Assembly: GCA_003990765.1 (NCBI GenBank)
Contig: RBNJ01000240.1
Coordinates: 1 to 35,760 of the forward strand
DNA: 35,760 nt
Source: Jimgerdemannia flammicorona
Lineage: Eukaryota
Reading direction: 5' to 3'
Position numbers and translations under genes: made by a program. Below the pieces are notes generated by a model. It made no database searches. It worked only from the letters and a program-made list of their open reading frames with translations, and was not told the origin of the DNA. Within the stretch, counting starts at the first letter, position 1, and every line of letters begins with the position of its first letter. Shown here one piece after another: positions 2,229 through 35,728 of the stretch.

Positions 2229-3996
2229 AGTACTTCTTGAGTCAGTTTTGATGAATGATGGTGGAGATTATTGTGCCTGAGGGCTTTCGTAACCGGAAAG
2301 TAGTTCCTTTTATATCTTGTACCAAATAAGGTCCTTCCCACTTGGGCTCCAGTTTTCATGACCAAGAAGCTTCTACCATATTCTGATATACTAAGACTTC
2401 ATCTCCTATCTTGATAATCTCCAGAAGCTTGTGGGCTTTTCCGCATTGTTCTGTTGTAGTGTCTGCACCTTGATTATGTAATCCTCTGCCTTTTTCCTAA
2501 TTTGATGCAATCTCTGTATCTCCATGTCCACATGCTTCCAGATTGCATCATTACTTACTGACAAACTTCCACTAGAACTTTCTTCACCGAATAGCATTTC
2601 TCATGGTGTAAAATGGATACTTTGTAATTGTATATCCTGCAGAGTGGATAATGCTATTGGTAGATAGTAGTCCCAGTTTCCATATTTGTCACAGATCTTA
2701 GCAATGATGTTCTTGAAGATCTTGTTGGTTCTTTCTGCTTGTCTGTTTCCTTGTGGGTAATAGACTGTGGTCTTGATATGTTGAATCTTGTACTTCTTGT
2801 AAAGAACCTCATGGAACTGGTTGACGAATTCTGTTCCTCTGTCTATAGTAACTTGCTTTGGGGTCTTGAATCAGCAGATGATTTCTCTATGTAAGAAATC
2901 GGCAATTGACTGTGCATTGGCTTCCTTGAGGGGTCCAGCCTCTACCCATTTTGTAAATAGATCCACTATTACAATGATATATCAGTTGCCAGTCAATATC
3001 AGGGGGAGAGGGCCAATTACATCCATTGCAATATGGGCAAATGGTATTGGTTCGATGTCTGCTAATCCTGGGGCTTGATCCCATCAGTCTTGTTTCTGTT
3101 TCTGGTATTTATCACAGGTTCTGACAAATTGTCTGATATCTTCTTCCATTCCAGGCCACCACATGGTTCTTCTCACTTTATCATATGTATTTATTCCTCC
3201 TACATGACCTTGTTTATGTACTTCTTTCATCACTTGATTCTTCCGGTGCTCGGGAATGACTAATTGTTGTCCTTTCTTGAGTATTTCTCCATCAGTTTCG
3301 AATTGTTTCCATGTCTGATTAATAATTGTTTTGGTCCATTCTTCCAGATGTGGGGGCATCTTTCGCTGCCCCAGGTAGCTGATGATTCCATAATACAGCT
3401 CTCTATTCATGGTGATTTCATGGGGGTGGGGTCCTTCGGGGTGTCCATGAGAGGGCATCTGCATTGGCATTGGTTCTTCCAGGGTGGTGGGTGATTGTGG
3501 CATCATATGCTTGCAGCTTCATGATCCATCGGGCATAGATTCCTTTGGGCTCACTAGTAGTGAGCAACCAGGTGAGTGCCGAATAATCTGTCTGGATGGT
3601 GAAGTATCTGCCAGCCAGATAGTAGTGGAACTTCTCCACAGCCCAGATGACTGTGAGGCATTCCAACTTGTATGATTCATAGGACTGCTTGGCTCCTCAG
3701 GTACCTCAGCTGAGATAAGCTACACATATTCAGCACCATTCTTCTTTTGTGTGAGGACAGCTCCAAGTCCCATTGCACTGGCATTCATCTGCAGAATAAA
3801 CTCTTGAGTCCAGTCAGGTCTTCTCAGGATTGGGGCCTGGGTCAATCTGGTCTTAAGCTCGTCAAAGGCTAGTTGCTGCTGCTGAGTCCACTGGAACTTG
3901 ACCTCTTTTCTGAACAGATCATAGATAGGACTGGCGATGTGGGAGAACCTTCTAATAAATCTTCTATAGTAGGATGCAAGTCCCATGAAGGCTCGG
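2218..3996 (-). pseudogene. pol: Element A pol, 3' part: RT connection, RNase H and integrase (no chromodomain)
   Basis: FMGLASYYRRFI; FILQMNASAMGLG (decayed TDAS); ECLTVIWAVEKFHYYL; zinc-binding region HKQGHVG...CDKYQ; C-terminal KWEGPY motif; stops and frameshifts. Confidence 0.95.
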
Positions 3997-4477
3997 TGTA
4001 AGAGGGTTACTTTTTAGGGTAACCGTTATGTAGTTCTGGAAAGGTTTTCTGGATATTCTGGATGTTCTAGAAGACCATTTTCTTATGGTCAAGATCAATT
4101 TCGTATAGAGTATGTCCTCTACGCTTATTGATTTCAAGATTGGGTTGACGTCTCAACCAAAGTCCTTTTTTGGACTAGTTCTGGATGTTCAGGATTTTCC
4201 GTATTTCAGGAAGTTCAAGAAACTAAGACCAGCTTAGTTGAATTGGCATATCGCTGCAGACAATACCCAATTAGGAAATTTCGTGATAGGGTTAGGAGTG
4301 GGACCTAACAGAGAGCGGATTTACTTAAGAGTGGTTTGTGGGTTATGGAATAGGTTTATTTGCTATTCATGGTATTGCTATACTAGGAGTATTTGTGTGA
4401 AGGGATATTGTGGGGAAGTGCTCAGGAGTTGTGTTCAGATTGTTCAAGTCTGAGATTCTGAGGTCTGGGGGAGAGGG

Positions 4478-4485
4478 TATTTATA
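4478..4485 (-). promoter_or_regulatory. Putative TATA box of the element B LTR (second copy at 13020-13027)
   Basis: TATAAATA on the minus strand, followed by a pyrimidine run and AATAAA at 4355-4360, the usual U3/R layout. Confidence 0.6.
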
Positions 4486-4674
4486 CTAGTGAGGGGCTAT
4501 CTGAACTATGCTAAATATGGGTGTAGCACTAAGTGCTTTGTTGAGTCGGAATACAGTCATGTAGTACAAGTGTGATCTGACATGTCAAGAGATCGTCTGA
4601 CTGCTGAGTCAGTTCACAGTCACATTGTACAAGGCTAATCTAACTATACTATAACTGCTAGGCTATTTATGGGT

Positions 4675-5907
4675 TTAGGCACTGTCTGGGTAGTCTTCGA
4701 TGACATCACCATCAATTGCATCATCTCTGATGAAGTAGTCATCTAGGAATAATGGTTCGCGGATTACTCCTCCTTGTTCGCTGAGATAATAGTACATTGG
4801 AACTTCGTCTCCGTCCCATAGGATAGCATCGTCTGTCTCGTAGGCTGGATAAGGTGTTGGTGGGCGAAGGATGGGTGTATTGTCTTCGCTTTCATCGGAT
4901 TCACTGTCTGTGTACCTTCTATAGGTTACAGTACTATGAGTTGCAGGATTGTAGTAAGCTGGTGGCTGTGGTTCATGTCGCTTGTACTCAGGTAGTGGAG
5001 TGGTTGGTTCAATCTCGAGAGTTGTCTGGAGGTACAGGTTGTGTTCTCCAGTTTCTTCATTGTAGTTGAAGTAGTTGGGGGTGAACATGGGTTGGTATTC
5101 GTGCCAGTGGTCATTGTCCCAATAAGTCTCATATACAGTTATGAACTGTTGCAAGTTCATCAGCAAGTTTGGTGGTGTGATCAGGGTTGGTAGAGATTCT
5201 TAGCTAGAGATCATGTTGGCATTAGAGGGATCATTATCTTCTGCTTCATCTTCATCGAAGTAGATTATATCGTAGATGTCCTTCATAGCATATCCGACTT
5301 GGGGCATTTGCAGGATATGGTCATCAGGGTGTGGGAAGGTTCTATCTGTAGTCTGGATGTACTCGAGGTACTTGTAGTTGAGTTCTTGTATCATGTCATT
5401 GATTTGGCCATAGGATAGGGTAGCAACCATTTCGCTGGTAGTGACTTGAAGGTGGGAAATAAAGGTGTTATACTCATAGAAGAGTTCTCGATGTTTGCAG
5501 GCGATGAGCTTCTGGTGTTGAGACATCTGGGTAATGTCTGTATCATGGTAGTGTTTGACCATGTCTTTCAGGAGGCAGCCGATCTGATAGTAGCTTGAGA
5601 TTTGTCTGATTCGGTGGGCCTTGCTAAGCATGTTCAGAGTATTCCATCGGGCTTCCACAAAGTAGAGGGGTGCTAGACTATGGATATTCATAAGGGGCAG
5701 AGGGGGTGTGACTCGGTTGACAATGGCATTCCAAATATCAGCATGGATACAGTTGTAGATCTCAGTGGTCATATTTGTATATTTGGAAGTTGTGGTTGTT
5801 GTTTGTTTTGGTTCTCTGATTCGACGCATCTCAGTGCTCAGTATATATGCATCTAATCCTGATTGGTAAGATTCCGTTTGTATAATTCTTGTGTTCTGTG
5901 ACTTCAT
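4675..5907 (-). pseudogene. ~410-aa ORF inside the U3 of element B's 3' LTR (one premature stop)
   Basis: ORFs 5200-5907 and 4675-5166 are in the same frame, separated by one TAA that is CAA in the other LTR copy (ISSQESLP). Confidence 0.85.
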
Positions 5908-6030
5908 ATTGACTCAGCTTTGTGATCAAGCAGGTGATTTCCAGATTTGTTCAGAGGTCGCATGTGATTTCAGTGGCTTGTTCCAAGGGTGACGTGTGAT
6001 TTCGGTGGCTTGGAGGTTGTGTGCTTACAA

Positions 6031-6043
6031 CTCTCCCCTTCTT
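6031..6043 (-). promoter_or_regulatory. Polypurine tract of element B
   Basis: Minus strand AAGAAGGGGAGAG, one base before the LTR start TGTAAGC. Confidence 0.9.
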
Positions 6044-6454
6044 AGCTTTCGATGTCCTCGTCGGGGCCTTCTAATTTGTTCTAGTGTTGTTACACTATTT
6101 GGGAGGTCAAAAGTCTGGTAAGGTCCATTTTCTCAGAAAGTGGCATGCTCGTAGTACAGTTGCCTAATGTGTTGGATTCACACGTTAAAGGGTCATATGT
6201 TCAATGCCGTGCGCCAGAAGTGATTCTGATATCATTCACTACTGGAGAATTTCCTCTAAGGAATCTTCTTAAATGTCTATACCTTGTTTCCCACCAGTGG
6301 TATAGGGAGAATAGGCTTGCTTTCAGTTTTGCTATTTTTTCCAGAGATTCGGTATTCTTGTCTTGTTTTGCTGAGTCTTGATTTGGTTCATGGTAGTTAT
6401 AATGTTCGGAAGGATAATATATGGTATGTGTAGATGGGTGCGGAATATTTAGTT

Positions 6455-6622
6455 CTAGTTGTTCAAGGAGTTATATTTCTGAACTAAGTTAGTAGCATTC
6501 TGGAGATTGGTCTTGAGTTCCCAGGTTACATCATGGATTGGGTAACCTTTCCATTTGACAAGGTACTCAGGATGGTTCTTGTTTCTGCATTTGTTCAGGA
6601 TTTGTTCAACTTCGTACTCTTC
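6455..6622 (-). pseudogene. Chromodomain at the integrase C-terminus of element B
   Basis: Manual translation EEYEVEQILNKCRNKNHPEYLVKWKGYPIHDVTWELKTNLQNA, in frame with pol; TAG at 6457-6455. Confidence 0.93.
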
Positions 6623-9600
6623 TTGGTCATTAATGATGACAGGTGCAGGTGGTTTGGTGGTCCAGTTTGGAAATAGCTTGTCATTATTGTCATTGTATCG
6701 CTTGAGATGTTGAACATTAAAGACTGGGTGAATCTTAATGGAGTCTGGTAGTGCTAGTTTGTAGGAGGTTGGAGAGACTTGCGCAATGACTTCAAATGGT
6801 CCAATGAACTTGCTGTTCAGCTTTGTCGATGGTCTATGCTTGAGGTTGTCAACTCAGTATCCTCTGATGTCCAGTAGAACCTTTTCTCCAATATCAAAGG
6901 TTTCTTCTCTGCGGTGTTGGTTAACATACTGTGACTGTTGTTCTTGAGCTCATGATAAATTCTCAATTGTGATCTGGCTTAGATTATGCAATCGGAGTAA
7001 GAATTCTTCAACAGCTTTGACTGTAGAGGGTTCTTCAGTAGTTCAGATGAGTGTCAAAGGGGTGTTTGGGTTTTGTCCAGTATTGGCGAAGAATGGGGTC
7101 ATTCCAAGAGAGGCTTGCTTGCTATTGTTATAGGTAAACTCAACTGTGGTGAGGTATTCATGCCAGTCATCTTGTATGTAGGAAACATAGTTTCTTAGCA
7201 TTTGTTCCAGAGTTCGGTTCATTCTTTCAGTTTGGCCATCAGTTTCTGGGTGAAAGGCTGTGGATAGTGCAAGTTTTGTTCCAAGGTGCGCATGGAGGGC
7301 ATTCCAAAAGTGGCTGGTGAATTTCGGATCTCGCTCACTAACAATGATCTTAAGAAGACCATGATAGCAGAAGATGTTATCAAACAGGAGTGTGGCTGTG
7401 TCTGGTGCTGTTATGGTAGTGGTAGTAGGTACAAAGTGGGCTTGTTTGCTGAGATAGTCCATGAAGACAACAATTGCATCTTTCCCATTCTTGGTTCGGG
7501 GTAGTTGTACAATGAAGTCCATAGAGATTTGTTCCCAATTCGTGGATGGTACCGGGATAGGGTGGAGTAAGCCGGGTTTTGCTAGTGTTGAGAACTTGTT
7601 TCGTTGGCAGGTATCACAGGAAGTGATGTAGGTTTTGAGCTAATCTGCCATGTGGGGCCAATAGAAGTTTCGGGAGATAACTTCATAACATTTATCAAAT
7701 TCTAAATGTCCAGCTGTAGGGGCATCACGACATTCGAATAGGATAGTCCTTCGGAGGTCTCGGTTGTTTGGAACATACAACCTGTCCTTGTAGTAGATAG
7801 CATTGTCCTTGAGTTAGTATTGATTGTACTGGGTATATTTGTCAGCATTGTCATTGTTCAGGATTTCTCGGAGTGCTTGAGCTTCTTTATCATCAACACA
7901 TGCTGCGATGATTTGTTCCATGATAGTGTTGGTAACCAAGGTCAGAGTTTGGATAACCTCTTCGATTAGTGGTCTGGAGATTGCATCGGCAACAATATTT
8001 TCCTTGCCAGAGCGGTACTGGATTTCATAGTCAAAGTTGGTGAGAACTTTCATCCATCTGGCTTGCTTTCAAGAAAGGGTAGCCTGTGTCTTGATGTTGA
8101 CTAATGACTTGTGGTTAGTCAATACAGTGAAGTGTGCTCCTTCTAGGTATGGTCGCCATTTGATCAGAGTGTCTATGATGGCTAGCATTTCCTTCTTATG
8201 AGTTGCGTAGTTGATTTCAGCATCATTGAACTTGTGAGAGTGATAGGCTACAGGGTGTCCTTCTTGCATGAGCACTGCTCCAAGAGCTAGGTCAGAGGCA
8301 TTGGTAGTGACTTCATATGGTAGGGCAGGGTTTGCCGCTTAAAGTACTGGAGTGGTTATCAGGGCATCTTTTAGTGCTTGAAAGGCAGTATCTTGTTTGG
8401 GTCCCCAATTTACAAGATTATTGAAGTCTTTCTCTTGTTTCATGGTCCAGGGTTGTTCTTGTTTCTTGCTGTGCTTGGTCATTTGGGTGAGGGCAGTAGC
8501 GATTTTAGCAAAGTTGGCAATGAATCGCCAGTAATAGTTTGCTAATCCCAGGAATAACTAGAGGTCTTTCAGCTTCTTGGGCGTGGGCCAATCTTTGATT
8601 GCAGAGATTTTGCTGGGGTCCACTTTGATTCCATTTGGAGTAACAATGTGTCTAAGGAATTGAATTTCTTTCAGAAGAAATTCACACTTGCTGAGTTTTG
8701 CAAAGAGTCAGTTTTCTCAGAGTTTCAGTAGTACTAGTTCAAGGTGTTCAAGATGTTCTTCCAGGGTTTTGCTGAAGACTAGGATGTCGTCAATGTAGAC
8801 AACAATGAATTTATCCAGATATGGATGCAGAATGGTATTCATCAGTGTCTGGAAGGTTGCTGGAGTATTAGTTAAGCCAAAGGGCATAACCAGGAACTCG
8901 AAGTGTCCATAGTGGGTTCGGAAAGCTGTCTTGTAGATGTCTTCTTCTTTCATGGCAATTTACCAGTAACCATTTCGCAGGTCAAAAGAGCTCATGAATT
9001 GTGGGTTGGTAAGTCTATCGAATATTTCATCAATCCTTAGTAGTGGGCAACAGTTCTTAATGGTTTGTTCGTTGAGATCGCGGTAGTCAATGCACATTCG
9101 TAGGTCTCCTCCTTTCTTGACAATAAAGAGGACTGGTGCACCATAAGGTGATACACTGGGTCTGATGAATCCTTGTTCTAGGAGTTCATCAATCTCCTTC
9201 TTGAGTGCATCTATTTCTCTCAGGGACATATGGTAGATTGACTTGAAGGCTGGTTTGGCATCTGGAATAGTCTTGATTGCATGGTCTACTGCTCACTTGG
9301 GAGGTAGGCCTTTTGGAAGCTTCTTTGGAAATATGTCTCGAAATTTCTGGAGTAGTGGTCTGACATGGCTGTCAACCTTGGAAAAATCTTCTTCAGAGTT
9401 CTCAGGTTCTCCTTTGGATGGGTGGATGGAGATGGCGAAGAGAGGGCATTTCTTGGCCAATTTCTTGAGTTGTAGCTTATTGATGTGAGTGATCTTTGGT
9501 CCAGGGTCACTAGAGTGAAGTGGGTCTTTTTCACCTTATAGTTTGAAGTGATGGCATCCTTTCTTGATGGTCAGGGAATGGTTTACCCAATCGATCATAG

Positions 9601-9900
9601 GGTTCTCTTGTTTTAACCATGACGTCCCAAGGATGATTTCATTGTCAGGAAGTGGTATGATTTGGAGGATAACATGTACTCAGTAGTCACCAATTCGGAG
9701 GGGTAGATTGCAGACTTCTTTGCTAATAATATGTGAGGTCCCATCAGCTGTAGCGACTGCTTGAGTTTGCTGTACTGGAGAGGTAAAGACCTTGAGTCTG
9801 TTGGCTGTCTCTTCATTGATGAAGTTGCCTGAGGCACCACTGTCTATCATAATCTTGACAGGTGCTCGATTGACAAAAGCTTTAAGTGTAAGCAGTTTGT
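6623..9900 (-). pseudogene. pol: Element B pol: aspartic protease, RT, RNase H, integrase
   Basis: [41 protein letters not shown] and NIVADAIS; MDFIVQLP, DGQTERMN and GPF motifs; all fragments share one frame, broken by point stops. Confidence 0.96.
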
Positions 9901-10111
9901 CTGATCTAATGGTAGTGATTTTGGTTGTTTGAGCTTTCCTTCTGTTGGTTCTTCTTTGAGCCAGTTCATTGATACAAGAGAAGCAATCATCAATCATTCG
10001 GGAAGAGTACATTCCAATGCCATGAGAGCATCAGCCACTTGGTACATATCTGTCTTCTATCTTCTTGTAGAATTGTCCTTCTTTGCTCATGGTAGGTTGG
10101 GCTGGGGCCTT

Positions 10112-10530
10112 GTTTGATGAGCCAAATCCTTTGGATCCTCAGATGGTGGGCAGTAGTTCAGGGACTTCCTTGACTGTCAGAGTTGACTCGATTTTTTCAA
10201 ATAGGATCTGGGCAATGCAGAAACCAATAGGGATCTTGAAGGGTGTCCAACTGTGGTTTCGGATGAGGACAATAATTTCATCTGTGTAATCCTCATCAAT
10301 GACTCCTCCTTCTACTGAGAGTCCTTTCAATGCTAGGCTGCTGTGACAGCATATTCTTCCAACATGTCCTTTAGGGATTTGAATACTGATTCCAGTGTAA
10401 ACTTGTTTGACTTCTTGGTTAGAAACTGTAGCTTCTTCAGCTGCATACAGGTCATATCCGGCTGCTTTTTGACTTCCTTTAGTTGGGGCCTTAGCAGTTT
10501 GTCTTAACTTGACAAAGTCTAGTGTTCTTG
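10112..10530 (-). pseudogene. dut: Trimeric dUTPase domain of element B, between the Gag zinc knuckle and the protease
   Basis: AAGYDL, SSLALKGL, GGVIDEDY, IAQI and *GSKGFGSS (motif V Arg codon now TGA). Confidence 0.93.
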
Positions 10531-10594
10531 TAGTCAGGTTGTTGAGGTGGTGAAGAGTGGTAACAGTTGCTCGTGTTGCTGTTCGGGGTTTTCA

Positions 10595-11577
10595 GTTGGG
10601 GCAGGCACTGGTCATGTGTCCTGTCTTTCAGCAATAAAAGCATGCTCCACTTCTTCGAAGTTCATTCCTTTCGCCTTCAGTGAGTTTCTTGAAGGTGCTC
10701 GGCTGGGTAGGTTCATGATTTCTGGGTGTCCAAGAGGTGGATATAGAGGGAGCTCGGGATGCTTCATGCTTGGGTTCTTCTTTCTTGGTCCAAGTCTTTT
10801 CCTTGTTGTTAAATTGTCTTTGGGGCAGAATTGGTCCGGCTGTTAGGATTTGCTTGATCATGGTCTTGATTCTTGCCAGACACCATTGTTAGTGATCACA
10901 ACCAACTGGGTGGCCTTGTTCTCGGATTTTTCTAGTAAGCCATTCAGGCAGTGCATTGAATAAATGGTCTGCTCTTGTACCATTTCGTGCTTCATCATTG
11001 GTGATATATCCTAGGCCAACAGTGTTCAGGAGTGACTCAAGTTTTGTATAGAAGGTTTCAAATTCTTCTTTATCATGTATATCAAATTTGAGGTTGCAGA
11101 GTTTTACTTGGGATTCTGCGATCATGGTTTCGCTGTGGTATTGGGCAATCATGAGTTGTTTGAGTCCAGGGGCTGCAGGATGGGCTCCATATCCTGGGGC
11201 ATTGTTTGCTGCATTCTGGGCAACTACTGCAGGTCGGGTATCCCATGTGAGGGGTTTTTCAGGAAGGGTTCGCCACCATTCTTCGGCAGGTCCTCAACAA
11301 CTTGACAGACATAGGCTGTAGTTGTAGTGAAGAGTTGTTCCAGGGTGTGGTCTTGATTGTTTGTCAGAATATGGTCAGCAACTCACTCATTAGTCCATTG
11401 ATTGGCTTCGAAGTTGGTGTCAACTACACTAATGAAGTTTTGGACTTCCTGTGCAGTACCATTGAAGATAGGTAGGCTCAGATTTTTGGTAGGTTGGGTC
11501 TGTTCAGCTAAGGCAGTAATGGTTGCTGCCATTATGGCTACCTGGGCTGTGAGGTCAAGAATCTGTTGGTTCACCAT
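10595..11577 (-). pseudogene. gag: Element B gag with CCHC zinc knuckle
   Basis: LPIFNG...FI, GPAEEWW, ERNELRRSGACFYC*KTGHMTSAC; one frameshift near 11305. Confidence 0.88.
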
Positions 11578-11661
11578 ATTGTTTACTGGAGGCAGTTGGA
11601 CTGCTGGTAGTGGTGTTACTGGTACTACTTGAGGTACTGGTGCAGAGTGTGATGGAGTTCT

Positions 11662-12465
11662 TTAGGTCTGTGTAAGTTGCTGGAGTAGTAGTTGTGGATC
11701 TGGAGTAAGGGCTTGATAGATAACTGTTTGTTGCTGTATAGGTGTATTCTGTCCTGATGGAGGTGCATCTCCTTCGGTGGTGTATCCGGGATCAAATTCA
11801 GTGAGATACTCCTTCTCCTCTTCGGTTTGGTCCTCATGTAATTGGGTTTGCTCAGCGTCAAAGTAGACAGAATCAGTTATATATCTGATTTCAGATGGAC
11901 TTAATTCAAAGTCAAGTTCAGGTTCGGTATTGGTTTCAGATTCAGGTAGGGCTGTAGCAGGGCCTGCTTCAGGTTCAGGGTCAGGTAGTTGATGAAGGGT
12001 TTCTCTTGCTTCTTCTTTGAGGATATGGCAGGCCTTGCTGTTCTGGAATCGGTAGTATAATGCGGTCTTGGTCCTGGTATGGTAAAAGTCAGTAGAGTTG
12101 AGCCACTTGACTACAGAGGCTTGGGCTTTGTGGGGAACTAAGGCTAGAAAGACTGCTGCTGGTTGTCCTAGATCGCTCAGATTTGTGGAGCTGACAAAAC
12201 TCTTGTTGAGAAGAGTAAAGAAGGCTTCAATAAGACCTTCTTCATCTTGACTTACTGGGTGTAGTGCAAGGAGTTCGGTGAATAGGGTTTCGCCTATTTG
12301 CTGATTTAACTGGAGTATTTCTTTCTTTGAATGGAGTTTGTCCCACTTGTTGCAGGTGTGGAGGTCAAATTGTCCTTGTACATCAGGTTCAATTCTCTCC
12401 AGATTGTCAGATGGTTCAGATAAAGTCCAGTTCAGAGGTTGGGCTTTATACCAACTTGTAGGAAT
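11662..12465 (-). pseudogene. 267-codon stop-free leader frame, upstream of and in frame with element B gag
   Basis: Manual translation is open from 12465 to a TAA at 11664-11662, then continues in frame into MVNQQ (11577); no in-frame ATG, so it is absent from the ORF track. Confidence 0.7.
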
Positions 12466-12512: not shown

Positions 12513-12535
12513 TGGATTGAAAACCGCTGCTATCA
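12513..12535 (-). promoter_or_regulatory. Primer-binding site of element B, initiator tRNA-Met-like
   Basis: TGATAGCAGCGGTTTTCAATCC, 3 nt after the 5' LTR; resembles the iMet PBS TGGTAGCAG...TTTCGATCC with G>A changes. Confidence 0.7.
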
Positions 12536-12538
12536 AGT

Positions 12539-14571
12539 TGTAAGAGGGTTACTTTTTAGGGTAACTGTTACGTAGTTCTGGAAAGGTTTTCTGGATATTC
12601 TGGATATTCTGGAAGACTGTTTTCTTATGCTCAAGATCAATTTTGTATGGAGTATATCCTCTATGGTTATTGATTTCAAGATTGGGTTGACGTCTCAACC
12701 AAAGTCCTTTTTTGGACTAGTTCTGGATGTTCAGGATTTTCCATATTTCAGGAAGTTCAAGAAACTAAGACCAGCTTAGTTGAATTGGCGTATCGCTGCA
12801 GACAATACCCAATTAGGAAATTTTGTGATGGGGTTAGGAGTGGGACCTAACAGAGAGTGGATTTACTTAAGAGTGGTTTGTGGGTTATGGAATAGGTTTA
12901 TTTGCTATTCATGGTATTGCTATACTAGGAGTATTTGTGTGAAGGGATATTGTGGGGAAGTGCTCAGGAGTTGTGTTCAGATTGTTCAAGTCTGAGATTC
13001 TGAGGTCTGGGGGAGAGGGTATTTATACTAGTGAGGAGCTATCTGGACTATGCTAAATATGGGTGTAGCACTAAGTGCTTTGCTGAGTCGGAATGCAGTC
13101 ATATAGTACAAGTGTGATCTGACATGTCAAGAGATTGTCTGACTGCTGAGTCAGTTCACAGTCACATCGTACAAGGCTAATCTAACTATACTATGACTGC
13201 TAGACTATTTATGGGTTTAGGTACTATCTGGGTAGTCTTCGATGACATCACCATCGATTGCATCATCTCTGATGAAGTAGTCATCTAGGAATAATGGTTT
13301 GCGGATTACTCCTCCTTGTTCGCTGAGGTAATAGTACATTGGAACTTCATCTCCATCTCATAGGATAGCATCGTCTGTCTCGTAGGCTGGATAAGGTGTT
13401 GGTGGGCAAAGGATGGGTGTATTGTCTTCGCTTTCATCGGATTCACTGTCTGCATACCTTCTATAGGTTACAGCACTATGAGTTGCAGGATTGTAGTAAG
13501 CTGGTGGCTGTGGTTCATGTCACTCATACTCAGGTGGTGGAGTGATTGGTTCAATCTCGAGGGTTGTCTGGAGGTATAGGTTATGTTCTCCGGTTTCTTC
13601 ATTATAGTTGAAGTAGTTGGGGGTGAACACGGGTTAGTATTCATGCCAGTGGTCATTGTCCCAATAAGTCTTGTATACAGTTATGAACTGTTGCAAGTTC
13701 ATCGGCAAGTTTGGTGGTGTGATCAGGGTTGGCAGAGATTCTTGGCTAGAGATCATGTCAGCGTTAGAGGGATCATTGTCTTCTACTTCATCTTCATCGA
13801 AGTGGATTATATCGTAGAAATCCTTCATAGCATATCCGACTTGGGGCATTTGTAGGATATGGTCATCAGGGTGTGAGAAGGTTCTATCTGTGGTCTGGAT
13901 GTACTCAAGGTACTTGTGGTTGAGTTCTTGTATTATGTCATTAATTTGGCTGTAGGACAGGGTAGCAACCATTTCGCTGGTAGTAACTCGAAGGTGGGGA
14001 ATAAAAGTGTTGTACTCATAGAAGAGTTCTCAATGTTTGTGGGCGATGAGCTTCTGGTGTTGAGACATCTAGGTAATGTCTGTATCATGGTGATGTTTGA
14101 CCATATCTTCCAGGAGGCGGCTGATCTGATAGTAGCTTGAGATTTGTCCAATTTGGTGGGCCTTACTAAGCATGTTCAGAGCATTCCATCGGGCTTCCAC
14201 GAAGTAGAGGGGTGCTAGGCTATGGATATTCATAAGGGGCAGAGGGGGTGTGGCTCGGTTGACAATGGCATTCCAAATGTCAGCGTGGATACAGTTGTAG
14301 ATCTCAGTGGTCATATTTGTATGTTTGGAAGTTGTGGTTGTTGTTTGTTTTGGTTCTCTGATTCGACGCATCTCGGTGCTCGGTATATATGCATCTAGTC
14401 CTGATTGGTAAGATTTTGTTTATGTAATTCTTGTATTCTGTGACTTCATATTGACTCAGCTTTGTGATCAAGCAGGTGATTTCCAGATTTGTTCAGAGGT
14501 CGCGTGTGATTTCAGTGGCTTGTTCCAAGGGTGATGTGTGATTTCGGTGGCTTGGAGGTTGTGTGCTTACA
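12539..14571 (-). repeat. 5' LTR of element B (2033 bp)
   Basis: Direct repeat of 3997-6029; followed on the minus strand by the PBS. Confidence 0.97.
13217..14449 (-). pseudogene. Second copy of the LTR-encoded ORF (5' LTR of B), with several stops
   Basis: Fragments 14069-14371 and 13634-13972 match the 3' LTR copy; stops near 14421, 14069, 13634 and 13359 fall on codons that are sense in the other copy. Confidence 0.85.
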
Positions 14572-15340
14572 CTTGGGCTTCAGTGATACTGGTAGGTACT
14601 GGGTATGCTGCTACTGCCTTGATCTTTGTAGGGTCTGTATGTATTCCTTTGCAGTTGATGATGTGTCTAAGGTATGCAATTTCTTCTTCTCCAAACTTGC
14701 ATTTCTTGGGCTTGATGTAGAGGCCATATTTGCGAAGCCTTCTGAGAATTTCCTTGATATGTTCCAAGTGCTCCCTGGCAGTTTGGCTGAAGATGATTAC
14801 ATCATCTACATATACCATCATCCATTTTTCCATAACATCTCTGAAGATGCTGTTCATCATTCGCTGGAAACTTGCTGGTACATTGCACATTCCAAAGGGC
14901 ATGCGAAGATAGACATAGGTTCTATCAGGAGTGATGAAGGCTGATCTTTTGCTGGCTTCAGGTGTAAGACTGATTTGGTAAAATCTAGAGAATAGGTCAA
15001 GAGTGATATAGAATTGTACTTCATTTCCTAGCATGATAAGGATGTCGCCAATGTTGGGCAATAGTTGTCTATCCTTCTTGGTGACTTCATTGAGCCTTCT
15101 GTAGTCTGTACAGAGCCTTGGTGCAAACTCTCCTGGTCAGCTTCCTTTCTTTGGTGCAAGGACAATGGGGGAGGACCAAGGGCTGCTGGCTTTCTTGATG
15201 ATACCGGATTCCTCCATTTTCTTGATTTCTGTCTTGAGCCATTCTCTGTATACTGGTGGAATTGGGCGGGCCTTCTGATAAATTGGCTTCGCATCTCCGG
15301 TGTTGACATTATGATAGTACAGGGGCTTCTTGGTCTTGAT
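14572..15340 (-). pseudogene. pol: Element A reverse transcriptase, N-terminal and core part
   Basis: LDLFSRFYQI, RMPFGMCN, VYVDDVII, KPKKCKF; cut by the element B insertion. Confidence 0.96.
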
Positions 15341-15502: not shown

Positions 15503-15919
15503 TCCTGTGGAGCTGAATCCCGCTCTTCCTCACTCGGTTTGTCTGATTTTTGTTACTTCCTTGATTCTCAGGTTAAGGATAAGTAGGATGAGCATCTGCA
15601 CCAGCTGATCTTTCTTCCTTACTTCGAATGAAATGATTGGGTTGTGATTTCTGGTGAGAAGGAGGATTTCTCCAGTATAATCTGAATCAATGACTCCTCC
15701 TTCTATAGATATTTCACTTTTTGCCAGGCTGCTCCTTGTCTTGAGGATTCCAACGTGGTTTGGTGGGATGGTTACTTCGATTCCTGTTCCCAAGATGGTG
15801 GTGGTCTGTGGTTCGAGTATTGTGTGTATTGTTGTAGACAGGTCCATTCCTGCTGCATTCTCCAATTTGTATTGTGACATAACTGCATCAGGGTGGATCC
15901 TTCGTATCTTAACTATGAT
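15503..15919 (-). pseudogene. dut: Trimeric dUTPase domain of element A, between protease and RT
   Basis: AAGMDL, RSSLAK, GGVIDSDYTGEI and *GRAGFSSTG (motif V Arg codon now TGA). Confidence 0.94.
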
Positions 15920-16199
15920 GTCTTCCTCATCATCACTGTCATCCAATAGCCCTGGAGGTCTATCTTCTGGTTCCTCCTGGTTCTTCTTTGGCTTGTTGGT
16001 GATCTTCTTCACCTCAATGATGCAGGAGTAGCAGTAATCCAGGTGTTGAGCGCAATACATTCTTTCACCATAAGGGCACACTCCTTGAGGTGCATATCTA
16101 TTTACGATTTTTACATACCATTCTTTCTCTGTCAATTGCTTGCCTTTTCCTTTCTTTATAATAACTATATAGGTTTCTTCCTTTTGTTCTTCCTCTATC

Positions 16200-16600
16200 T
16201 CTGGGCAGACTCCTTTGTGGACATTGATGGGAATTCTGATCTTCTTTCCCTGGTAGACGATTTGCATCTTCTGTATGCTGAGGTCAATCATTGCCTTGGC
16301 TTTGTGAAGCCACTGATTGCCAATGAGAATATCATAGTTGGTTGCATTGGTAACAATGACATCTACAGGGATAGTGGCTTCACTGAATTTGATTGGTACA
16401 TCTTGAATCTTTCCCAAAGGTGTTGCTTGTGTTCCATCAGCTGTGATGAATACCAATTTGGTGGCTTTCTCTATTTCCCAGCCTAGACGGTCTACTGCTT
16501 TCTTAGTGATGAGGTATCCTCTGGCTCCTGTATCAATGATGGCTTCAAAGACTCAATTCTCGATCTGGCAAGTAGCATATACTGATGTTTTCCAATTGTC
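16200..16600 (-). pseudogene. Element A retropepsin-like aspartic protease
   Basis: AIIDTGA at ~16523-16543; ITADG; DILIGNQWL. Confidence 0.92.
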
Positions 16601-18061: not shown

Positions 18062-18064
18062 AGT

Positions 18065-18511
18065 TGTAACATAGCAGATACTAAGATGGGCAAGTATATC
18101 AGATTTCTTTATCTTGAATTCTTGTCTTCTTGACTCCCAGAGTCAGTAGTTCCTTGAGGCCAAATGTGTTTAAAGAGGTAATCCCGAAGGTCCTTTTATT
18201 GGTATACTTGTTCTTTTTCTAATACTTTCGATCTGAGGTTTATTTACTCCAAGATACTGGGTTATTTATACAAGTTTGCTAGCTATGCGAAGGTGGCTAA
18301 GTAATAAATGAGTCATTTGGACTTTGTCAAAATATTTAGACAATGTCTAAATGCTATACTAAACCGGGACATTCAATTTGGATAATGTCTAAGAATTTAG
18401 ACAATGTCGAGATTGAGGACTGTTAACTATAAGGCTATACTATTTTGGAACTGGGTGCGATCGAGTGTATATTCCCTATTTCCTTCTTCCAAATTTGGCT
18501 GTACCATCACA
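18065..18511 (-). repeat. 5' LTR of element A
   Basis: Direct repeat of 1283-1729; followed on the plus strand by TSD CTAT. Confidence 0.97.
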
Positions 18512-18736
18512 CTATTAATACTATCAGAGCCTCACTATAGATCAAATTATCATCTAGACTAAACTGGATATATTGGTATAAATAAAGACTTACTAAAAAG
18601 ATCTATCAAATTTTCTGATATTACTCTCTATATAATCTCTAATTGTAACTTTAATAAATATCAGATATTTAGAATCTCTTCTACCCTAAAGTAGATAAAC
18701 TAAAAGTTAAGGTAGCTACTAAGGTCTACTCCTAAA

Positions 18737-19048
18737 TAATACTTCTAATAAATTGAATTGATCAAATTAAGGTTCAATTCAATTGAATTGAATTAAAGGT
18801 TAATTTGATTTAAAATTTAATTTGAATACTACTTTTTGAAATATAATAACTTAACAAATATATGTCCAAATTTAACAGTCTTTAGCTTATTAGATTTCCC
18901 TATATAAGGTAAATCTAATAAGCTAAGAATTATTAAATTTAGATATATTTTTATCAAGTTATTATATTTTTAAAAATAGGATTCAAATTGGATCCTCAAT
19001 TTGATTTGAATTGAAAAATCTTTAATTTAATTTATTTGAGAATACTAT
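18737..19048. mobile_element. Foldback/MITE-like palindromic element (boundaries approximate)
   Basis: Imperfect inverted repeat centred at 18904, with arms 18819-18897 and 18911-18989; perfect core TTAGCTTATTAGATTT/AAATCTAATAAGCTAA; AATTG/AATTC pentamer repeats at both ends. Confidence 0.7.
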
Positions 19049-19244
19049 CTATAGATCTCTCTCAAGATTAAAGACTATATATAAACCTCATTAGAGTTTC
19101 TTACTAAATAATTACTCTGACCAATGGATTCAAGACCTCTCTGATCTATTTGAAGGACTATTTATACAAATGGACATCTAAAGGAATAAAAACTAAGTAC
19201 TTTATATAAATAGTACTAACCACATCAGATAGCAATCTCTAACC

Positions 19245-19255
19245 AGTAAGAGGAT

Positions 19256-19292
<37 letters not shown>

Positions 19293-19304
19293 TAAGAGGA
19301 TCTC
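19245..19304 (-). mobile_element. Poly(A)-only retroposon insertion with a 14-bp TSD
   Basis: AGTAAGAGGATCTC (19245-19258) + T31 + A + AGTAAGAGGATCTC (19291-19304). Confidence 0.85.
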
Positions 19305-20964
19305 ACTATCTTGGATTAGTAAGAATTATTTATAGATCTTATTGATTTCATTATTCTTAATATTGATATCTCTACTGATCTATATACTAATCAAGGAAAT
19401 ATTAATGATAAGAATAAGAATATATTCCTCTAGTCTTTAACTTCAAGATAGATGAAATAAAATCAATATAGATAGATATTGATTTCTAAGAAGAGTGAAA
19501 TATAATAAGAATTTTATTTATAATATATTGTAAATAGTGATTACATGACCTAACAAGCAATAATATCATAAATGAGTAATATATAAAGTAAATAAGATAA
19601 ATAAGATGAATGTTGAAAATAATATATTAAATCTCCTGAATACTAGAATTAGTATTAGTGCTATAGTAATTATATTACTTAACTAATATATTATTAAAAG
19701 TAATTGCTCTGATTATAAAATCAAAAGTAACTATCTAGAATATAAAGAATATTTATTTTTGAAATAAACAACTAAGTAGTTATATTTAATTAATTATTTA
19801 TAGATAACTAGAAAACTGTGAAATATTATTTAGTCAATATATATAAATATACTAATAATTATATTTCAAATAAACAAGCTCTTAGCTAAGTATAAATCTC
19901 TTAACATATATATATATACCTGAGTTTCTTAGTAATGAACCCTAAGTTACTCTAGTATTTCTGACTAAACTTTAAAAAGTCTAGCTAACTTCTTCCAGAA
20001 CTAAGAACTAGTATATAAATCTAAAAAGAAAACTTCTTTGAATCTGAATGATAAGAGATTTAGTCTATAAATAGCAAGAATAAGTCTCTTATAACTATAG
20101 TTACTAAAGAAGGGCCACATCTTTATTCTGCTATAAAGAAATAGTACTTCTTCAAATCTTAATAAATCTCACTAAGTAAAAGAATAATTGAAAGACTTTT
20201 TAATATACATATATAAAGTTTCTAAGTAATATCTTATTACTCAAGTTATCTAAAGATATAAAAGAAATTAAAATAAGTATTATTATAAGTCTTTTTAACT
20301 AGCCTTTTACATTCTCTTTCTCTTTTTCTCCTCTTAGATCTAATCTCAATTCTTGAAGAATTTCTTCTATCTACTCTTTAATTTAAATAATCTCTGATAA
20401 ATCCCTCTCAAGCACTATAATTTTCTAACTCTTTAGTCTAACTATTATTATATAAGTTCTCTTCTATAGCTTAGTTCTCTTTTAGAATATAAATTTAAAA
20501 TTCACTATCTTATTATATCTCTCTAAAGTCTCAATAATTATCTCTTTTATCTTCTATCTCTCTAAGATCGGCATTCTTTCTACTATTAGCCTCACTACTC
20601 TAAAATCCTATCTTCAATATCTTATTATTTTAATCTTAACTTTTCTGACAACTAGTTATTTTTCCAGAATAGTTACTATCTTCTTCTCTTTTATAAAGCT
20701 CACTTTTACTATATATTACTACTAAAGAAATAAACTTTAAAAACTCAGCCTTATTAACTTTTTTACTAATAATATACAGTATCTCTCTAGCAGATATCTC
20801 TAGATCTAGAAAGTTTATTAAGATAGCTTAGATAAATATCAACTTATAGAAGAAAGATCTTGCTACTAGCTTATTAAATCTTATAGTCAAAGAGACCTTT
20901 CTTTTACTATTTATCACTCTATCAGTTATATCTTCAATTATATTTTCACTAATTATGTATGTAG

Positions 20965-27600: not shown

Positions 27601-28610
27601 AATGTCTTCCCCAGTCCCAATCAATTATCCAGACCAGATGCTATCTTCCCCATCTTGATCTTATCAGTAAAGATTGTCCTCTCTCTCCTTATTACCTCAA
27701 TCCACCCCTCTCTCTACCTCCAGTACTACAGCCCACCATAGGAGGCTCTGGCATCTCCAATCCATCTCCTTGCCTCCTCCTGACATACTGTCAGTCAAAG
27801 GCACTTCTATCTCCCTGGCTGATATGCTCATCAGTATACTTGTTACTGTCTATATTACTAGTCTCCTTTTACCAAAAATATTGCAGAAAGTGTTATCTGA
27901 GTCTTGTGTCATCTGAATGTTACTAGTTAAAGATATCTGTAGTAACTTATTTATATATAGAGAGAGATATAAAAGTAAATTTAGAAAATATTTATATACT
28001 AATAAAAAATACTCTAATTATTAGTTCTATCAGTTTCAGTACTAGCACTAATGTAAATTATATACCAAATACTTATATATATAGTAAAGAAGTCTGGTTT
28101 ATAGATTCAAGTGTAATATAGTATATGTATAATAGTATACTATGAGTAATTATCTACATATGAGAAGTTCAAATATCTCATGCATATCAAATTAGATGAT
28201 AATAATATCATTTATGCTCAAGACAAGGGTAATGTCAATATATATCTATATAGAACTCTCAGGTACCTCTGTAGATATACTATATATACTAGATATGGAT
28301 AAGAACCTCTTCTCAATAGGCCAGATGATAGCTCAAGGAGATAAAAAAGTAAATATATAACCAAATAGTATATATAACAGTGATTAATCTAAAGAATAAT
28401 AAGAAGCTAATATATGTATCAAAAAAGAGGAATCTATATACAATTAATAGTATGCTAAGTGATACATTATCTATATATTCTACAATAGTAATTAATATCT
28501 AGTATATATAGTATAAATACTTAGAATATATCAATAAGATGAGTTTGGAATAAATGATAAAGAGTAAATCTATATAGTGTAGTATACAATTTGTATGGGT
28601 CTAGTTGCTG
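21681..28610 (+). mobile_element. Heavily mutated Ty1/Copia relic (5' LTR, gag, PR, pre-integrase), interrupted by a LINE and 3'-truncated
   Basis: Probable short LTR ~21681-21838, then GGTTATAAGCTC (decayed GGTTATGAGCCC Copia PBS); Gag-like PIFDSKDY, SASNRFCLKVQLFNL and NEDKVLTLM; after the LINE, protease VWFIDSSVI*YMY at ~28092, AQDKGNVNI and KNLFSIGQM. Confidence 0.75.
22871..27921 (-). mobile_element. L1/Tx1-like LINE, older near-full-length copy with an internal deletion
   Basis: Poly(A) tail (T run 22871-22892) with AATAAA at 22912-22917; 5' end CATTCAG matches 30374; LEKNPD and ADLADG in ORF1; WSDH, APDEDGLPWDFW and C-terminal CEEC...PEHWLEEC in ORF2; N-terminal endonuclease motifs not found. 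Confidence 0.92.
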
Positions 28611-30116: not shown

Positions 30117-30356
30117 TATTCAGATTATACAATCTTTTGACCCACTTAAGACATCATTTTTGGAGTAAAGATACTAGCAATATAGTAACCAATATACATT
30201 TTGAGATACATGATGGGCAGGGAAGCTCTAGTGCATTCAACTGGCAGTATGTGGAGAGGAGTCATAGCTTGGAGAGAAGTATGAGGGGCCTGCTAGCAGG
30301 AGGATATAAAAGGAGAGAGGGTGGCACTGGGGGACAGAGAACTAGAAGGGTGAGCC
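30117..30356 (+). mobile_element. 5' end of an older related LINE copy
   Basis: Diverged direct repeat of 30374-30613 (RHHFW..., GQGS.SAF.WQ.V.R, MRGLL.GG). Confidence 0.85.
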
Positions 30357-30439
30357 GCATCTCTTTCCAGTACCATTCAGGTTACACAACCTTTGGAAGG
30401 CACTTTCGACATCATTTTTGGCAAAAAGAGACTAACAAC

Positions 30440-32464: not shown

Positions 32465-32497
32465 AGGCAGATTGACAATATCACCTATATCATCAAT

Positions 32498-35400: not shown

Positions 35401-35726
35401 ACTGCTGGGGAGTGCTCCCTTAGTTGAGTTCGACATTGGTGATGGGATGGAATGCCAAAGGGGACCAGGCCAGGATCTGTGGCCTAGCGGTTGGCAAGGA
35501 GTTGGAATTGGTGAGGAGTGGAACTGGCATAGTGTTTGGACCTGGAGCACTGCAGTGAGAGCATGGCTGCCACCAAAGTACTGGGTGGTCTGGTGGCACA
35601 TGCTGCGGAGGAATGTTATGCTCAATTTTCACTCAGGGCACCTGGTTGTAGGGGGTTGCTTCGACTGTGAGGAGTGCTATAATGTAGGGCAGGAGGGGGG
35701 TTATGTACAGATGCCGGAACATTGGC

Positions 35727-35728
<2 letters not shown>
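32498..35728 (+). pseudogene. LINE ORF2 (APE endonuclease plus reverse transcriptase), disrupted
   Basis: SLNVNGL, LLQD, GGDFN, WSDH; APGEDGLP, LDQEKAYD, GVPQGDPLSP, AFADD; CFDCEEC...PEHWL. Confidence 0.95.

Follow-up and report, generated by a model that had tools for sequence, protein, structure and literature searches.

A probable accessory protein gene inside the long terminal repeats of a chromovirus from Jimgerdemannia flammicorona

A chromovirus nested in another retroelement

The DNA analyzed here (the window) is a 35,760-nucleotide stretch of contig RBNJ01000240.1 from the Jimgerdemannia flammicorona assembly GCA_003990765.1. It contains a minus-strand Ty3/gypsy chromovirus with a dUTPase domain, element B, nested in the reverse transcriptase (RT) region of a second element, element A. 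Self-BLAST identified the two long terminal repeats (LTRs) of element B as an ungapped pair, 2033 nt each and 94.589% identical. The 3′ LTR occupies positions 3997..6029 and the 5′ LTR positions 12539..14571, both on the minus strand. Inspection of the sequence revealed TG..CA ends, a polypurine tract (PPT; AAGAAGGGGAGAGT, 6030..6043, minus strand) abutting the 3′ LTR, and a primer binding site (PBS) region (ACTTGATAGCAGCGG, 12524..12538, minus strand) abutting the 5′ LTR, the PBS-like sequence being TGATAGCAGCGG. The element is flanked by a 5-bp target-site duplication (TSD), CCGAG at 3992..3996 (minus strand) and CCAAG at 14572-14576. Finally, a contig from sequencing run X3 represents the empty site, joining position 3993 to position 14600 with 26 unlike letters between them. 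The TG..CA ends, TSD, PPT, PBS and empty-site contig fix the LTR boundaries. In another copy of the family, found in run X2, the PBS region reads ..TGGTAGCAGCAG.

The gag-pol region of element B (6455..12465, minus strand) is decayed: its 2002 codons include 21 in-frame stops, and alignment with other copies shows a gap of 10 nt at 11295. Its domains are arranged in the order N-terminal unknown region, gag-like region, dUTPase, protease (PR), RT, integrase (INT) and chromodomain. Pfam recognized the dUTPase ahead of PR (1.5e-29) and, in order, gag-asp_proteas (6.5e-09), RVT_1 (0.0014, a weak match in a decayed copy), rve (1.5e-05), SH3_Tf2-1 (6.7e-18) and Chromo (2.5e-16). Element B thus has the direct TG..CA repeats, short TSD, PPT and PBS of a chromovirus, as well as, over the PR, RT, INT and chromodomain regions scanned, the PR-RT-INT order with a C-terminal chromodomain. 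Among named organisms, the closest integrases come from the early-diverging fungi Paraglomus and Calcarisporiella and from green algae (59-62% identity). A 267-aa frame following the PBS was considered as a possible paralogue of the LTR reading frame described below; this was rejected (best E 1.1), the frame being the N-terminal part of gag-pol. The element B family is present as contigs in 17 sequencing runs, soil metagenomes among them and no RNA run. Four runs were compared with the window (X1, X2, X3 and X8); all consist of contigs, which cannot show RNA starts, ends or expression.

A reading frame contained in both LTRs

The original prediction held that about 60% of the LTR is a single sense-strand reading frame, beginning 122 nt from the LTR edge and ending some 190 nt ahead of a putative TATA box. 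All of these measurements were borne out. The frame spans 410 codons from LTR position 123 to position 1355 of 2033 (60.6%), with the putative TATA box starting 190 nt past the stop. Both the initiation codon and the stop codon lie inside the LTR; thus the whole ORF is contained in it, as in mouse mammary tumor virus (MMTV) sag. The 3′ copy, 410 codons followed by TAA, runs on the minus strand at 4675..5907, with the ATG at 5905-5907 and the TAA at 4675-4677. The 5′ copy follows the same frame at 13217..14449 (minus strand; ATG at 14447-14449, stop at 13217-13219). Neither is intact. The 3′ copy carries one internal stop, a TAA at 5200-5202 (codon 236), and the 5′ copy carries six (codons 10, 127, 140, 272, 310 and 364). 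No paralogue of the frame was found elsewhere in the window.

None of the seven internal stops is common to both copies, and each differs by one transition, C>T or G>A, from the CAA, CAG, CGA or TGG at the corresponding codon of the other copy. Since the two LTRs stop at different codons, each explained by one transition, the frame was open when element B inserted and decayed later, in agreement with the predicted history of the gene. The density of stops in the two copies (7 in 820 codons) is about the same as that of the gag-pol region (21 in 2002); the frame has been eroded at the pace of gag-pol, by transitions at CpG and CpA. As they stand, both copies in the window are dead.

Several lines of evidence suggested that the ancestral frame was coding. 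In the same interval of the 3′ copy, the other five frames contain 19, 32, 11, 29 and 29 stops, and in the 5′ copy 17, 37, 11, 27 and 28. When the LTR was simulated 2000 times with a first-order Markov model, the longest open frame had a mean length of 85 codons and a maximum of 190; no simulated LTR reached 237 codons and only four reached 174. Codon usage was scored with a model built from 1610 pol/gag codons taken from both elements, A and B; the LTR frame obtained +94 bits in the 3′ copy and +60 bits in the 5′ copy. By comparison, the other two sense frames scored from -159 to -226 and the antisense frames from -22 to -247. Scores were also negative in all three sense frames for the remaining part of the LTR and for the spacer between pol and the LTR (6030-6454). 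GC and AT skews show no change from pol on through the LTR. With its pol-like codon usage and an open relative sharing 66% of its residues (see below), the frame looks like real coding sequence.

The distribution of mutations between the two LTRs was compared with the expectations of a context model. Of the 81 differences within the frame, 40 are synonymous as opposed to approximately 28.5 expected (p = 0.006), while the number of stops, seven, is that expected (about 6.9). The synonymous excess is unexplained and implies that the mutation model is incomplete. Two parts of the LTR are the least mutated: the 122 nt ahead of the ORF (LTR positions 1-122), with two differences against 7.4 expected, and the block extending from the TATA box through R (positions 1541-1713), with none against 5.3 expected. 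Among the 12 indels listed, out of 20 in the four sequencing runs, none falls within either ORF interval and five fall in the 425-nt spacer between pol and the LTR.

The encoded protein and its relatives

The LTR frame would encode a soluble orphan protein whose two halves differ in character. As anticipated, the C-terminal 174 residues are acidic and rich in tyrosine and proline (pI 4.05, 18 Tyr, 20 Pro); this half is probably disordered. The predicted helical nature of the N-terminal half was recovered by both structure models, albeit with low confidence, and this half is probably helical. The structural search proposed alongside the original prediction was unrewarding: AlphaFold2 gave pLDDT values of 31.0 with a three-row alignment and 42.4 for residues 46-235 alone. 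Neither model had a confident fold or was fit for a fold search, and the best match of a profile search of the PDB was a kinetochore protein with E = 0.17. Pfam returned nothing significant up to E = 10, the best hit being ACT-like and below threshold (E 0.06-0.11; 13-14 bits, where the cut-off is 27). No hydrophobic or membrane segment was found, the highest 19-residue Kyte-Doolittle window reaching 0.98. The ESM Atlas gave no usable match for the C-terminal half. For the N-terminal half it gave an F-box lead (0.90, 81 of 256 shared features), which was rejected: the recognition value of 1922 lies below the 2300 mark, and the Pfam F-box is absent at E <= 10 from either half and from the two relatives described next.

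Only two relatives were retrieved among 1.84 billion representative proteins, and both are fragments. One, P0003 (from a contig of 1180 bp), belongs to the same family as the window ORF and has suffered less damage; of the 20 differences between it and the window copy, 17 reflect C>T or G>A damage to the latter. The other, P0002 (from a contig of 998 bp), is a more distant fragment of 247 amino acids, 66% identical and open to the same C-terminus. Its alignment comprises 166 identical and 205 similar residues out of 250 and is interrupted by two 2-residue gaps, hence by in-frame gaps only. As many as 40 of its 80 differences would require more than one transition. Neutral drift to 66% identity was simulated starting from the codons of the window, with three mutation spectra and 1000 runs per spectrum; the frame emerged free of stops in 0.4%, 1.2% and 2.5% of the runs, respectively. 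The persistence of an open frame with in-frame gaps only argues for purifying selection on the LTR ORF, as judged from one diverged fragment known from protein alone. Protein databases record open frames only and broken relatives would go unseen in them. A polyprotein with dUTPase, P0007, comes from a contig of 28.7 kb.

Pattern searches of contig collections yielded 12 and 592 matches in JGI metagenomes, 111 among the viral contigs of IMG/VR and 114 in prokaryote genomes; none of these was confirmed as a relative. With two relatives in 1.84 billion proteins and none in the contig sets, the family is narrow and could be short-lived. The two relatives and the lack of any Pfam or PDB match make this a lineage-restricted protein, in the sense applied to the additional ORFs (aORFs) of plant retrotransposons.

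Placement, expression and origin of the LTR gene

The gene was originally predicted to lie in the U3 part of the LTR. Its confinement to the LTR is established; its placement in U3 we infer from a single pair of motifs downstream of the frame. The first, TATAAATA, is a putative promoter TATA box found at 4478..4485 (minus strand; also at 13020-13027), starting at LTR position 1545 and occurring once in the LTR. The second, AATAAA, is a putative poly(A) signal that would mark the end of R. It is located at 4355..4360 (minus strand; also at 12897-12902) and starts at LTR position 1670, 315 nt past the end of the ORF and 125 nt past TATAAATA. Apart from TATAAATA, the LTR contains one TATA-like match, TATA[AT]A at position 183, which falls within the ORF.

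The opposite edge of the LTR has features of its own. Three GAAATCAC motifs, spaced by 30-32 nt, occupy the first 100 nt of each LTR (5934..6003, minus strand; also 14476-14545). A motif search counted eight matches in the window, three per LTR, against 1.62 expected. The same stretch was recovered as a 25-nt direct repeat (D4), the 30-nt repeats being unreported by TRF. From their location just upstream of the ATG, we infer that these motifs form a region that may control the ORF. No ATG of the LTR precedes that of the ORF in the 5′ copy; in the 3′ copy one does, at LTR position 67, where the 5′ copy reads ACG.

We consider it probable that this retrotransposon family has, in the LTR frame, a genuine gene for an accessory protein, located within the U3-like two thirds of the LTR that lie ahead of the promoter. 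At reverse transcription, the U3 at the RNA's 3′ end would be copied into both LTRs; hence the genomic RNA would carry the gene once, in its 3′ untranslated part, and the gene would be present twice in each DNA copy and once in each solo LTR. On the full-length RNA, the ORF would lie behind a gag-pol frame of about 2000 codons, unreachable by scanning ribosomes, and would thus need an mRNA of its own. The favoured candidate is a short transcript whose start would lie within the first 122 nt of the LTR or shortly ahead of them, and whose end would be at the LTR's AATAAA. Alternatively, the protein could be made from a spliced subgenomic RNA, as is the case for MMTV sag. A scan of element B for splice signals found four donor-like hexamers; the 440 nt leading up to the ORF contain no branch-like CTRAY, and no set of donor, branch and acceptor stood out. 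Contig joints between the two LTRs, which skip 8529-8553 nt, were considered as signs of splicing and dismissed, as they reflect LTR equivalence. Neither Rfam families nor tRNA genes were found in the window; thus, the cargo of the LTR is not a Cassandra-like RNA gene.

The product would most likely serve the family in trans as a regulator or adaptor. The suggestion that it might be a transactivator or an anti-silencing factor takes its basis from the acidic composition alone. An extended form of the proposal, possible and in our view doubtful, would make each LTR a self-contained gene. Such a unit would combine a promoter at the 5′ edge with the GAAATCAC motifs, a monocistronic mRNA for the 410-aa protein and a poly(A) signal of its own, and every 5′, 3′ and solo LTR would express a trans-acting factor serving the family, for instance an acidic activator or an adaptor that counters silencing. 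In double-copy retroviral vectors, a cassette placed in the U3 of the 3′ LTR is duplicated to the 5′ LTR and, being outside the retroviral transcription unit, can be expressed independently. Those vectors are engineered; if LTRs of the element B family were indeed self-contained, the ORF would be a putative natural counterpart, and no protein gene encoded by an LTR would have been described in a retrotransposon before it.

Other explanations can be envisaged for a frame of this kind. The open frame might have arisen by chance from a skewed base composition, without any gene being involved. The sense strand is indeed rich in A and C and poor in G, and the structure models are poor. Nonetheless, the failure of composition-matched simulations to attain 237 codons, the abundance of stops in the other frames and the maintenance of the frame in a diverged relative leave this idea scarcely credible. 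A gene without function for the element is a more serious contender. In this scenario, host or foreign coding DNA would have been captured into the LTR in a single lineage, not long before the burst of that lineage, and the frame would have been open at insertion only because it was young. The orphan status of the protein, with its two fragmentary relatives and no known domain, would fit such a passenger, as would the tolerance of U3 to insertions and the presence of an imperfect inverted repeat around the ORF. However, the open P0002 frame, uninterrupted over 247 residues apart from in-frame gaps, is the rare outcome of the neutral simulations, and codon usage and strand skews are already like those of the element's own genes, which argues for a long residence on the element's RNA. 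We therefore regard capture of a passenger as rather unlikely.

The inverted repeat itself, with 31-nt arms at 4603..4633 and 5888-5918, brackets the ORF closely and could be taken to delimit an unrelated small mobile element (LTR positions 112-1427) that inserted in an ancestral LTR and brought the ORF as its gene. This origin appears very improbable, as the arms are only 71% complementary and both contain a TGAGTCA/TGACTCA core whose palindromic nature gives much of the match. Furthermore, no target duplication is seen beside the arms in the LTR sequence, no transposase or other Pfam match was obtained, and the composition resembles that of the host element. The repeat may be due to chance. 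A last alternative accepts the gene and questions its position relative to the promoter: if transcription started at the 5′ edge of the LTR, R would be about 1.6 kb long and the ORF would be the first cistron, repeated at both ends of the RNA. The ORF's ATG being the first in the 5′ LTR and the GAAATCAC repeats in the first 100 nt are compatible with this arrangement. Against it, a textbook TATAAATA and the AATAAA that follows both lie downstream of the ORF, an upstream cistron of 410 codons would block scanning to the gag-pol frame, and the promoter of the 5′ LTR would be limited to host DNA and at most 122 nt of LTR. Such a long R is, in our judgement, improbable.

Retrotransposon LTRs are usually treated as non-coding control regions and are masked by annotation pipelines. 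A conserved gene in them would carry a retroviral trick, that of MMTV sag and the nef-type overlaps with U3, over to non-infectious retrotransposons. Solo LTRs are usually deemed dead relics; in that case, they could encode protein at loci dispersed in high copy number through a genome. The gene would also be a candidate for how a very high-copy family withstands CpG-directed mutation and silencing. In any event, the ORF offers a clean test case for the entry and carriage of cargo in U3. Phrase searches of open-access text, which are not proof of absence, found no report of a protein ORF within the LTR of a retrotransposon; the matches for LTR-borne coding were limited to MMTV-type retroviral cases, foamy-virus LTR miRNAs and Candida Tca5.

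In MMTV, the sag gene precedes the LTR promoter and its mRNAs are spliced. The nef gene of HIV/SIV, bel2/bet of foamy viruses and the end of HTLV tax belong to 3′ genes that run into U3 and are expressed from subgenomic mRNAs. These genes start before the LTR and merely overlap it, whereas the ORF of element B starts and stops inside. It resembles sag, described in three reports as a superantigen ORF in the 3′ LTR of MMTV (PMC2119085, PMC2191119, PMC2119154), in that a complete ORF resides in the LTR and is thus duplicated in both LTRs of the DNA form. The carriers differ, MMTV being a vertebrate betaretrovirus and element B a chromovirus retrotransposon, and so do the products, since Sag is presented as a type II membrane protein (abstract of PMC2191119) and the LTR-ORF protein is without a hydrophobic segment. 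With no Pfam relationship to Sag and no membrane anchor, the ORF is at most similar to a U3 gene and is not a member of the Sag family. In Candida Tca5, according to passages of PMC4139406, the gag-pol frame may begin inside the 5′ LTR.

Additional ORFs of plant elements provide a second term of comparison. ORF0 of rice Retrosat2/RIRE3/RIRE8 lies between the 5′ LTR and gag-pol (passages of PMC3485330), and the aORF classes are assigned to the internal region, from the 5′ LTR to gag or from pol to the 3′ LTR, in review text that names no LTR placement (passages of PMC7264820). By those descriptions, element B resembles the plant cases in having a lineage-restricted orphan protein, a Ty3/gypsy carrier, unusually long LTRs and an ORF that evolves faster than pol; it differs from them in the location of the ORF, inside the LTR instead of the internal region. 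Extra proteins have been described for other elements, including the trans-acting CERV of C. elegans Cer1 (abstract of PMC10309623) and ORFs captured, besides gag and pol, by bdelloid rotifer elements (abstract of PMC5408684). The abstracts mention no LTR-internal position, and the likeness to element B is by description only. Finally, passages on Postia placenta chromoviruses (PMC2864245) list for some elements an "add. ORF" of unknown function, giving no LTR placement, and describe dUTPase-bearing members, PosPlaTy3-3, -4 and -5. As far as those passages go, element B resembles PosPlaTy3-3 in having its dUTPase on the N-terminal side of Pol, and element A resembles PosPlaTy3-5, with the dUTPase between PR and RT.

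An open reading frame inside the LTRs of element B

Comparison of the window with itself reveals two direct copies of a 2033-nt repeat, at 3997-6029 and 12539-14571, which align at 94.589% identity with no gap. Read on the minus strand, both copies start with TG and end with CA, and a 5-bp duplication borders the pair (CCAAG at 14572-14576, CCGAG at 3992-3996). The polypurine tract AAGAAGGGGAGAGT adjoins the 3' LTR of element B, a minus-strand Ty3/gypsy chromovirus, and the PBS-like sequence TGATAGCAGCGG directly follows its 5' LTR. A contig from a soil run links 3993 straight to 14600 across 26 unlike letters and is the site without element B in element A, a second chromovirus. The agreement of ends, duplication, tract, PBS and empty-site contig thus makes the LTR boundaries firm. 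Element B interrupts the RT of element A, whose LTRs lie at 1282-1729 and 18064-18511.

A decayed polyprotein lies between the element B LTRs, in the order gag-like, dUTPase (10139-10591, minus strand; PF00692, 1.5e-29), aspartic protease, RT, integrase core, SH3_Tf2-1 and C-terminal chromodomain (2.5e-16). The dUTPase of element A is placed between protease and RT (15530-16552, minus strand, 2.5e-18) and that of element B before the protease, corresponding to two of the three arrangements reported from Postia placenta elements (PMC2864245). After position 11295, other copies represented by one contig of sequencing run X8 carry 10 extra bases; runs X1 and X2 show loose ends there. This insertion would bring a 267-aa frame lying past the PBS (11662-12465, minus strand) into the gag-pol frame, and it is therefore no separate upstream ORF but the N-terminal part of a single polyprotein of about 2000 codons. 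One extra base stands at 12418-12419 in almost every contig of runs X1 and X3 (depth 140.9/142.9 in X1); the window copy thus lacks 1 nt, a deletion private to it, near the start of the polyprotein frame. The best matches to the integrase are 65% identical; named ones are from Haematococcus lacustris (61-62%), Paraglomus occultum (61%), Calcarisporiella thermophila (59%), Nannochloris (51%) and Berkeleyomyces (47%). Sequencing runs in which the family occurs bear the label soil metagenome or that of a coded organism. A fungal host is plausible.

Each LTR contains a sense frame that begins with an ATG at LTR position 123 (element orientation), extends for 410 codons to a TAA at 1353-1355 and takes up 60.6% of the LTR (3' copy, 5907-4675; 5' copy, 14449-13217; both minus strand). 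One internal stop is found in the 3' copy (codon 236) and six in the 5' copy (codons 10, 127, 140, 272, 310 and 364). None is common to both, and each is one transition away from a CAA, CAG, CGA or TGG in the other copy. The putative TATA box TATAAATA begins at LTR position 1545, 190 nt past the ORF stop. The original prediction, which described an LTR-internal ORF with unshared, single-transition stops and this spacing to the TATA box, was borne out in every detail.

In both copies, each of the other five frames of the interval is broken by 11 to 37 stops. The LTR was simulated 2000 times with a first-order Markov model: the longest open frame had a mean of 85 codons and a maximum of 190, short in every case of the 237 codons still open in the 3' copy despite its damage. 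With 1610 gag/pol codons of elements A and B as training set, a codon model gave the ORF +94 bits in the 3' copy and +60 bits in the 5' copy, as against -159 to -226 for the two other sense frames and -22 to -247 for the antisense frames. Scores were negative in all frames of the remaining LTR and of the pol-LTR spacer. G is raised at the first codon position (0.25 vs 0.11 and 0.13), as it is in pol, and the sense-strand skews of element B (C over G, A over T) run unchanged across the LTR.

Decay since insertion and possible traces of selection

The LTR copies differ at 110 sites, 107 of them by transitions, and their mutation loads are alike (52 and 55 mutated states). Differences affect 50/128 CpG sites (39%), the most mutated class, 39/309 CpA/TpG sites (12.6%), 20/485 other C/G sites (4.1%) and 1/1111 A/T sites (0.1%). 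Classical RIP of ascomycetes prefers CpA, unlike this CpG-first spectrum. In-frame stops number 21 in the 2002 gag-pol codons of element B and 7 in the 820 codons of both ORF copies together, and stop-prone codons make up a similar share of each. The ORF was thus as intact as gag-pol at insertion, and the two have decayed jointly from then on. The stops match the expectation from site context (7 vs about 6.9), whereas synonymous changes are in excess (40/81 vs about 28.5; p = 0.006). This excess looks more like the product of an incomplete mutation model than of selection; it may stem from a bias of strand or of the wider sequence context, or from conversion by other gene copies. Two blocks are the least mutated of the LTR: the TATA-to-R block (LTR 1541-1713; window 4317-4489 and 12859-13031), with 0 vs 5.3 expected from context (P 0.005), and the 122 nt ahead of the ORF (LTR 1-122; 5908-6029 and 14450-14571), with 2 vs 7.4 (P 0.02). 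They may have been spared methylation-linked mutation or reflect chance among the five blocks tested.

A word-indexed search of 5.8 billion proteins identified one relative of the ORF protein among 478 candidates of similar length and one among 50 shorter ones; phmmer over 1.84 billion representatives of any length returned only the same two. One fragment, P0003 (128 aa), covers residues 46-173 at 84% identity. It belongs to the window's own family and has suffered less damage: 17 of its 20 differences are C>T or G>A changes that the window copy has undergone. The other, P0002 (247 aa), is truly diverged. It ends at the same C-terminus and matches at 166/250 identical and 205/250 similar positions, with two 2-residue gaps, and half of its 80 differences (40) are impossible as single transitions. 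When codons 160-410 of the window were allowed to drift neutrally to 66% identity, only 0.4%, 1.2% and 2.5% of runs stayed stop-free (1000 runs for each of three mutation spectra). The open frame and in-frame gaps of P0002 are the main evidence for purifying selection and argue for it moderately, coming from one fragment and from databases that record open frames only.

The element B family is very abundant, with 8928 contigs in run X1, one of four runs. Variation in the four runs is mostly transitions; of the 12 indels listed (out of 20), none falls inside either ORF interval and 5 lie in the 425-nt pol-LTR spacer. DNA relatives of the ORF were not found in JGI metagenome contigs, IMG/VR or prokaryote genome contigs, and no second related locus was found elsewhere within the window. 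Summed contig depth, a measure unfit for ranking parts, is in all four runs about twice as high over the R-U5 end (3900-4621, 12564-13285) as over the ORF part, a mere hint at possible LTR variants that lack the ORF part.

The predicted protein and its proposed expression

Judged by Pfam, PDB and Atlas, the protein fits no known family or fold. Pfam returned only an ACT-like match below threshold, the best PDB profile hit had E = 0.17, and Atlas gave no match for the C-terminal half. A weak F-box lead for the N-terminal half (Atlas score 0.90, recognition below the mark) found no backing in Pfam. AlphaFold2 models are poor (pLDDT 31.0 and 42.4), both showing long helices at residues 40-190. 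No hydrophobic segment is present in the protein. The C-terminal 174 residues (pI 4.05) include 35 acidic vs 7 basic residues, 18 Tyr and 20 Pro, a composition common to P0002. Stretches unchanged between the two families include FPHPDDHILQMPQV, TGEHNLYLQTT, PPTPYPAY and YFIRDD.

During replication of LTR elements, U3 is copied from the RNA 3' end into both LTRs. The only TATA/poly(A) pair found in the LTR, TATAAATA and an AATAAA at position 1670, lies downstream of the ORF. An element transcript starting after the former and ending after the latter would place the ORF in U3; the genomic RNA would then carry it in its 3' untranslated part, and each DNA copy would have it twice. Because the polyprotein frame of about 2000 codons precedes it, the ORF would need an mRNA of its own. 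This could be a spliced RNA, for which a splice-signal scan gave no support, or a short mRNA starting in or just before LTR nt 1-122. We favour the short transcript from the LTR edge because of three GAAATCAC motifs spaced 30-32 nt apart in the first 122 nt, the position of the first ATG and the low mutation of that stretch. The window contains 8 matches to GAAATCAC vs 1.62 expected, 3 of them in each LTR. In the 5' copy the first LTR ATG is the ORF start; in the 3' copy another precedes it at position 67, a triplet that is ACG in the 5' copy. The ORF is bracketed by an imperfect 31-nt inverted repeat (4603-4633 and 5888-5918; 71% complementary), both arms containing the palindromic core TGAGTCA/TGACTCA, the AP-1/Gcn4-type site.

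Known systems and other features of the window

Genes of the nef type overlap U3. An ORF inside the LTR is textbook knowledge for MMTV sag (PMC2119085 and others). Extra ORFs of plant LTR retrotransposons are well documented, in the internal region (PMC3485330, PMC7264820); ORF0 of Retrosat2 sits upstream of gag-pol (PMC3485330), whereas the element B ORF is inside the LTR. The sections drawn on from the 2020 plant aORF review mention no LTR-internal aORF (PMC7264820). Phrase searches of open-access full text found no retrotransposon whose LTR contains a protein gene, and a precedent may exist. On present sequence evidence, moderate for selection, the ORF is an accessory gene in a real and unusual location, its expression and function being putative.

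Elsewhere, a GC-rich stretch (52-57%) at 30092-35758 (plus strand) contains frames of 459 aa (no Pfam match) and 649 aa (open-ended, with an RVT_1 domain, 1.1e-25), together with two shorter ones. The stretch is a further retroelement, unlike elements A and B in kind; our guess is a non-LTR element. Very AT-rich stretches (GC 22-29%) lie between elements at 1-1000, 18500-20500, 22000-23000 and 28000-29000, and a segment of 172 nt (18819-18989) aligns to its reverse complement with 82.6% agreement.
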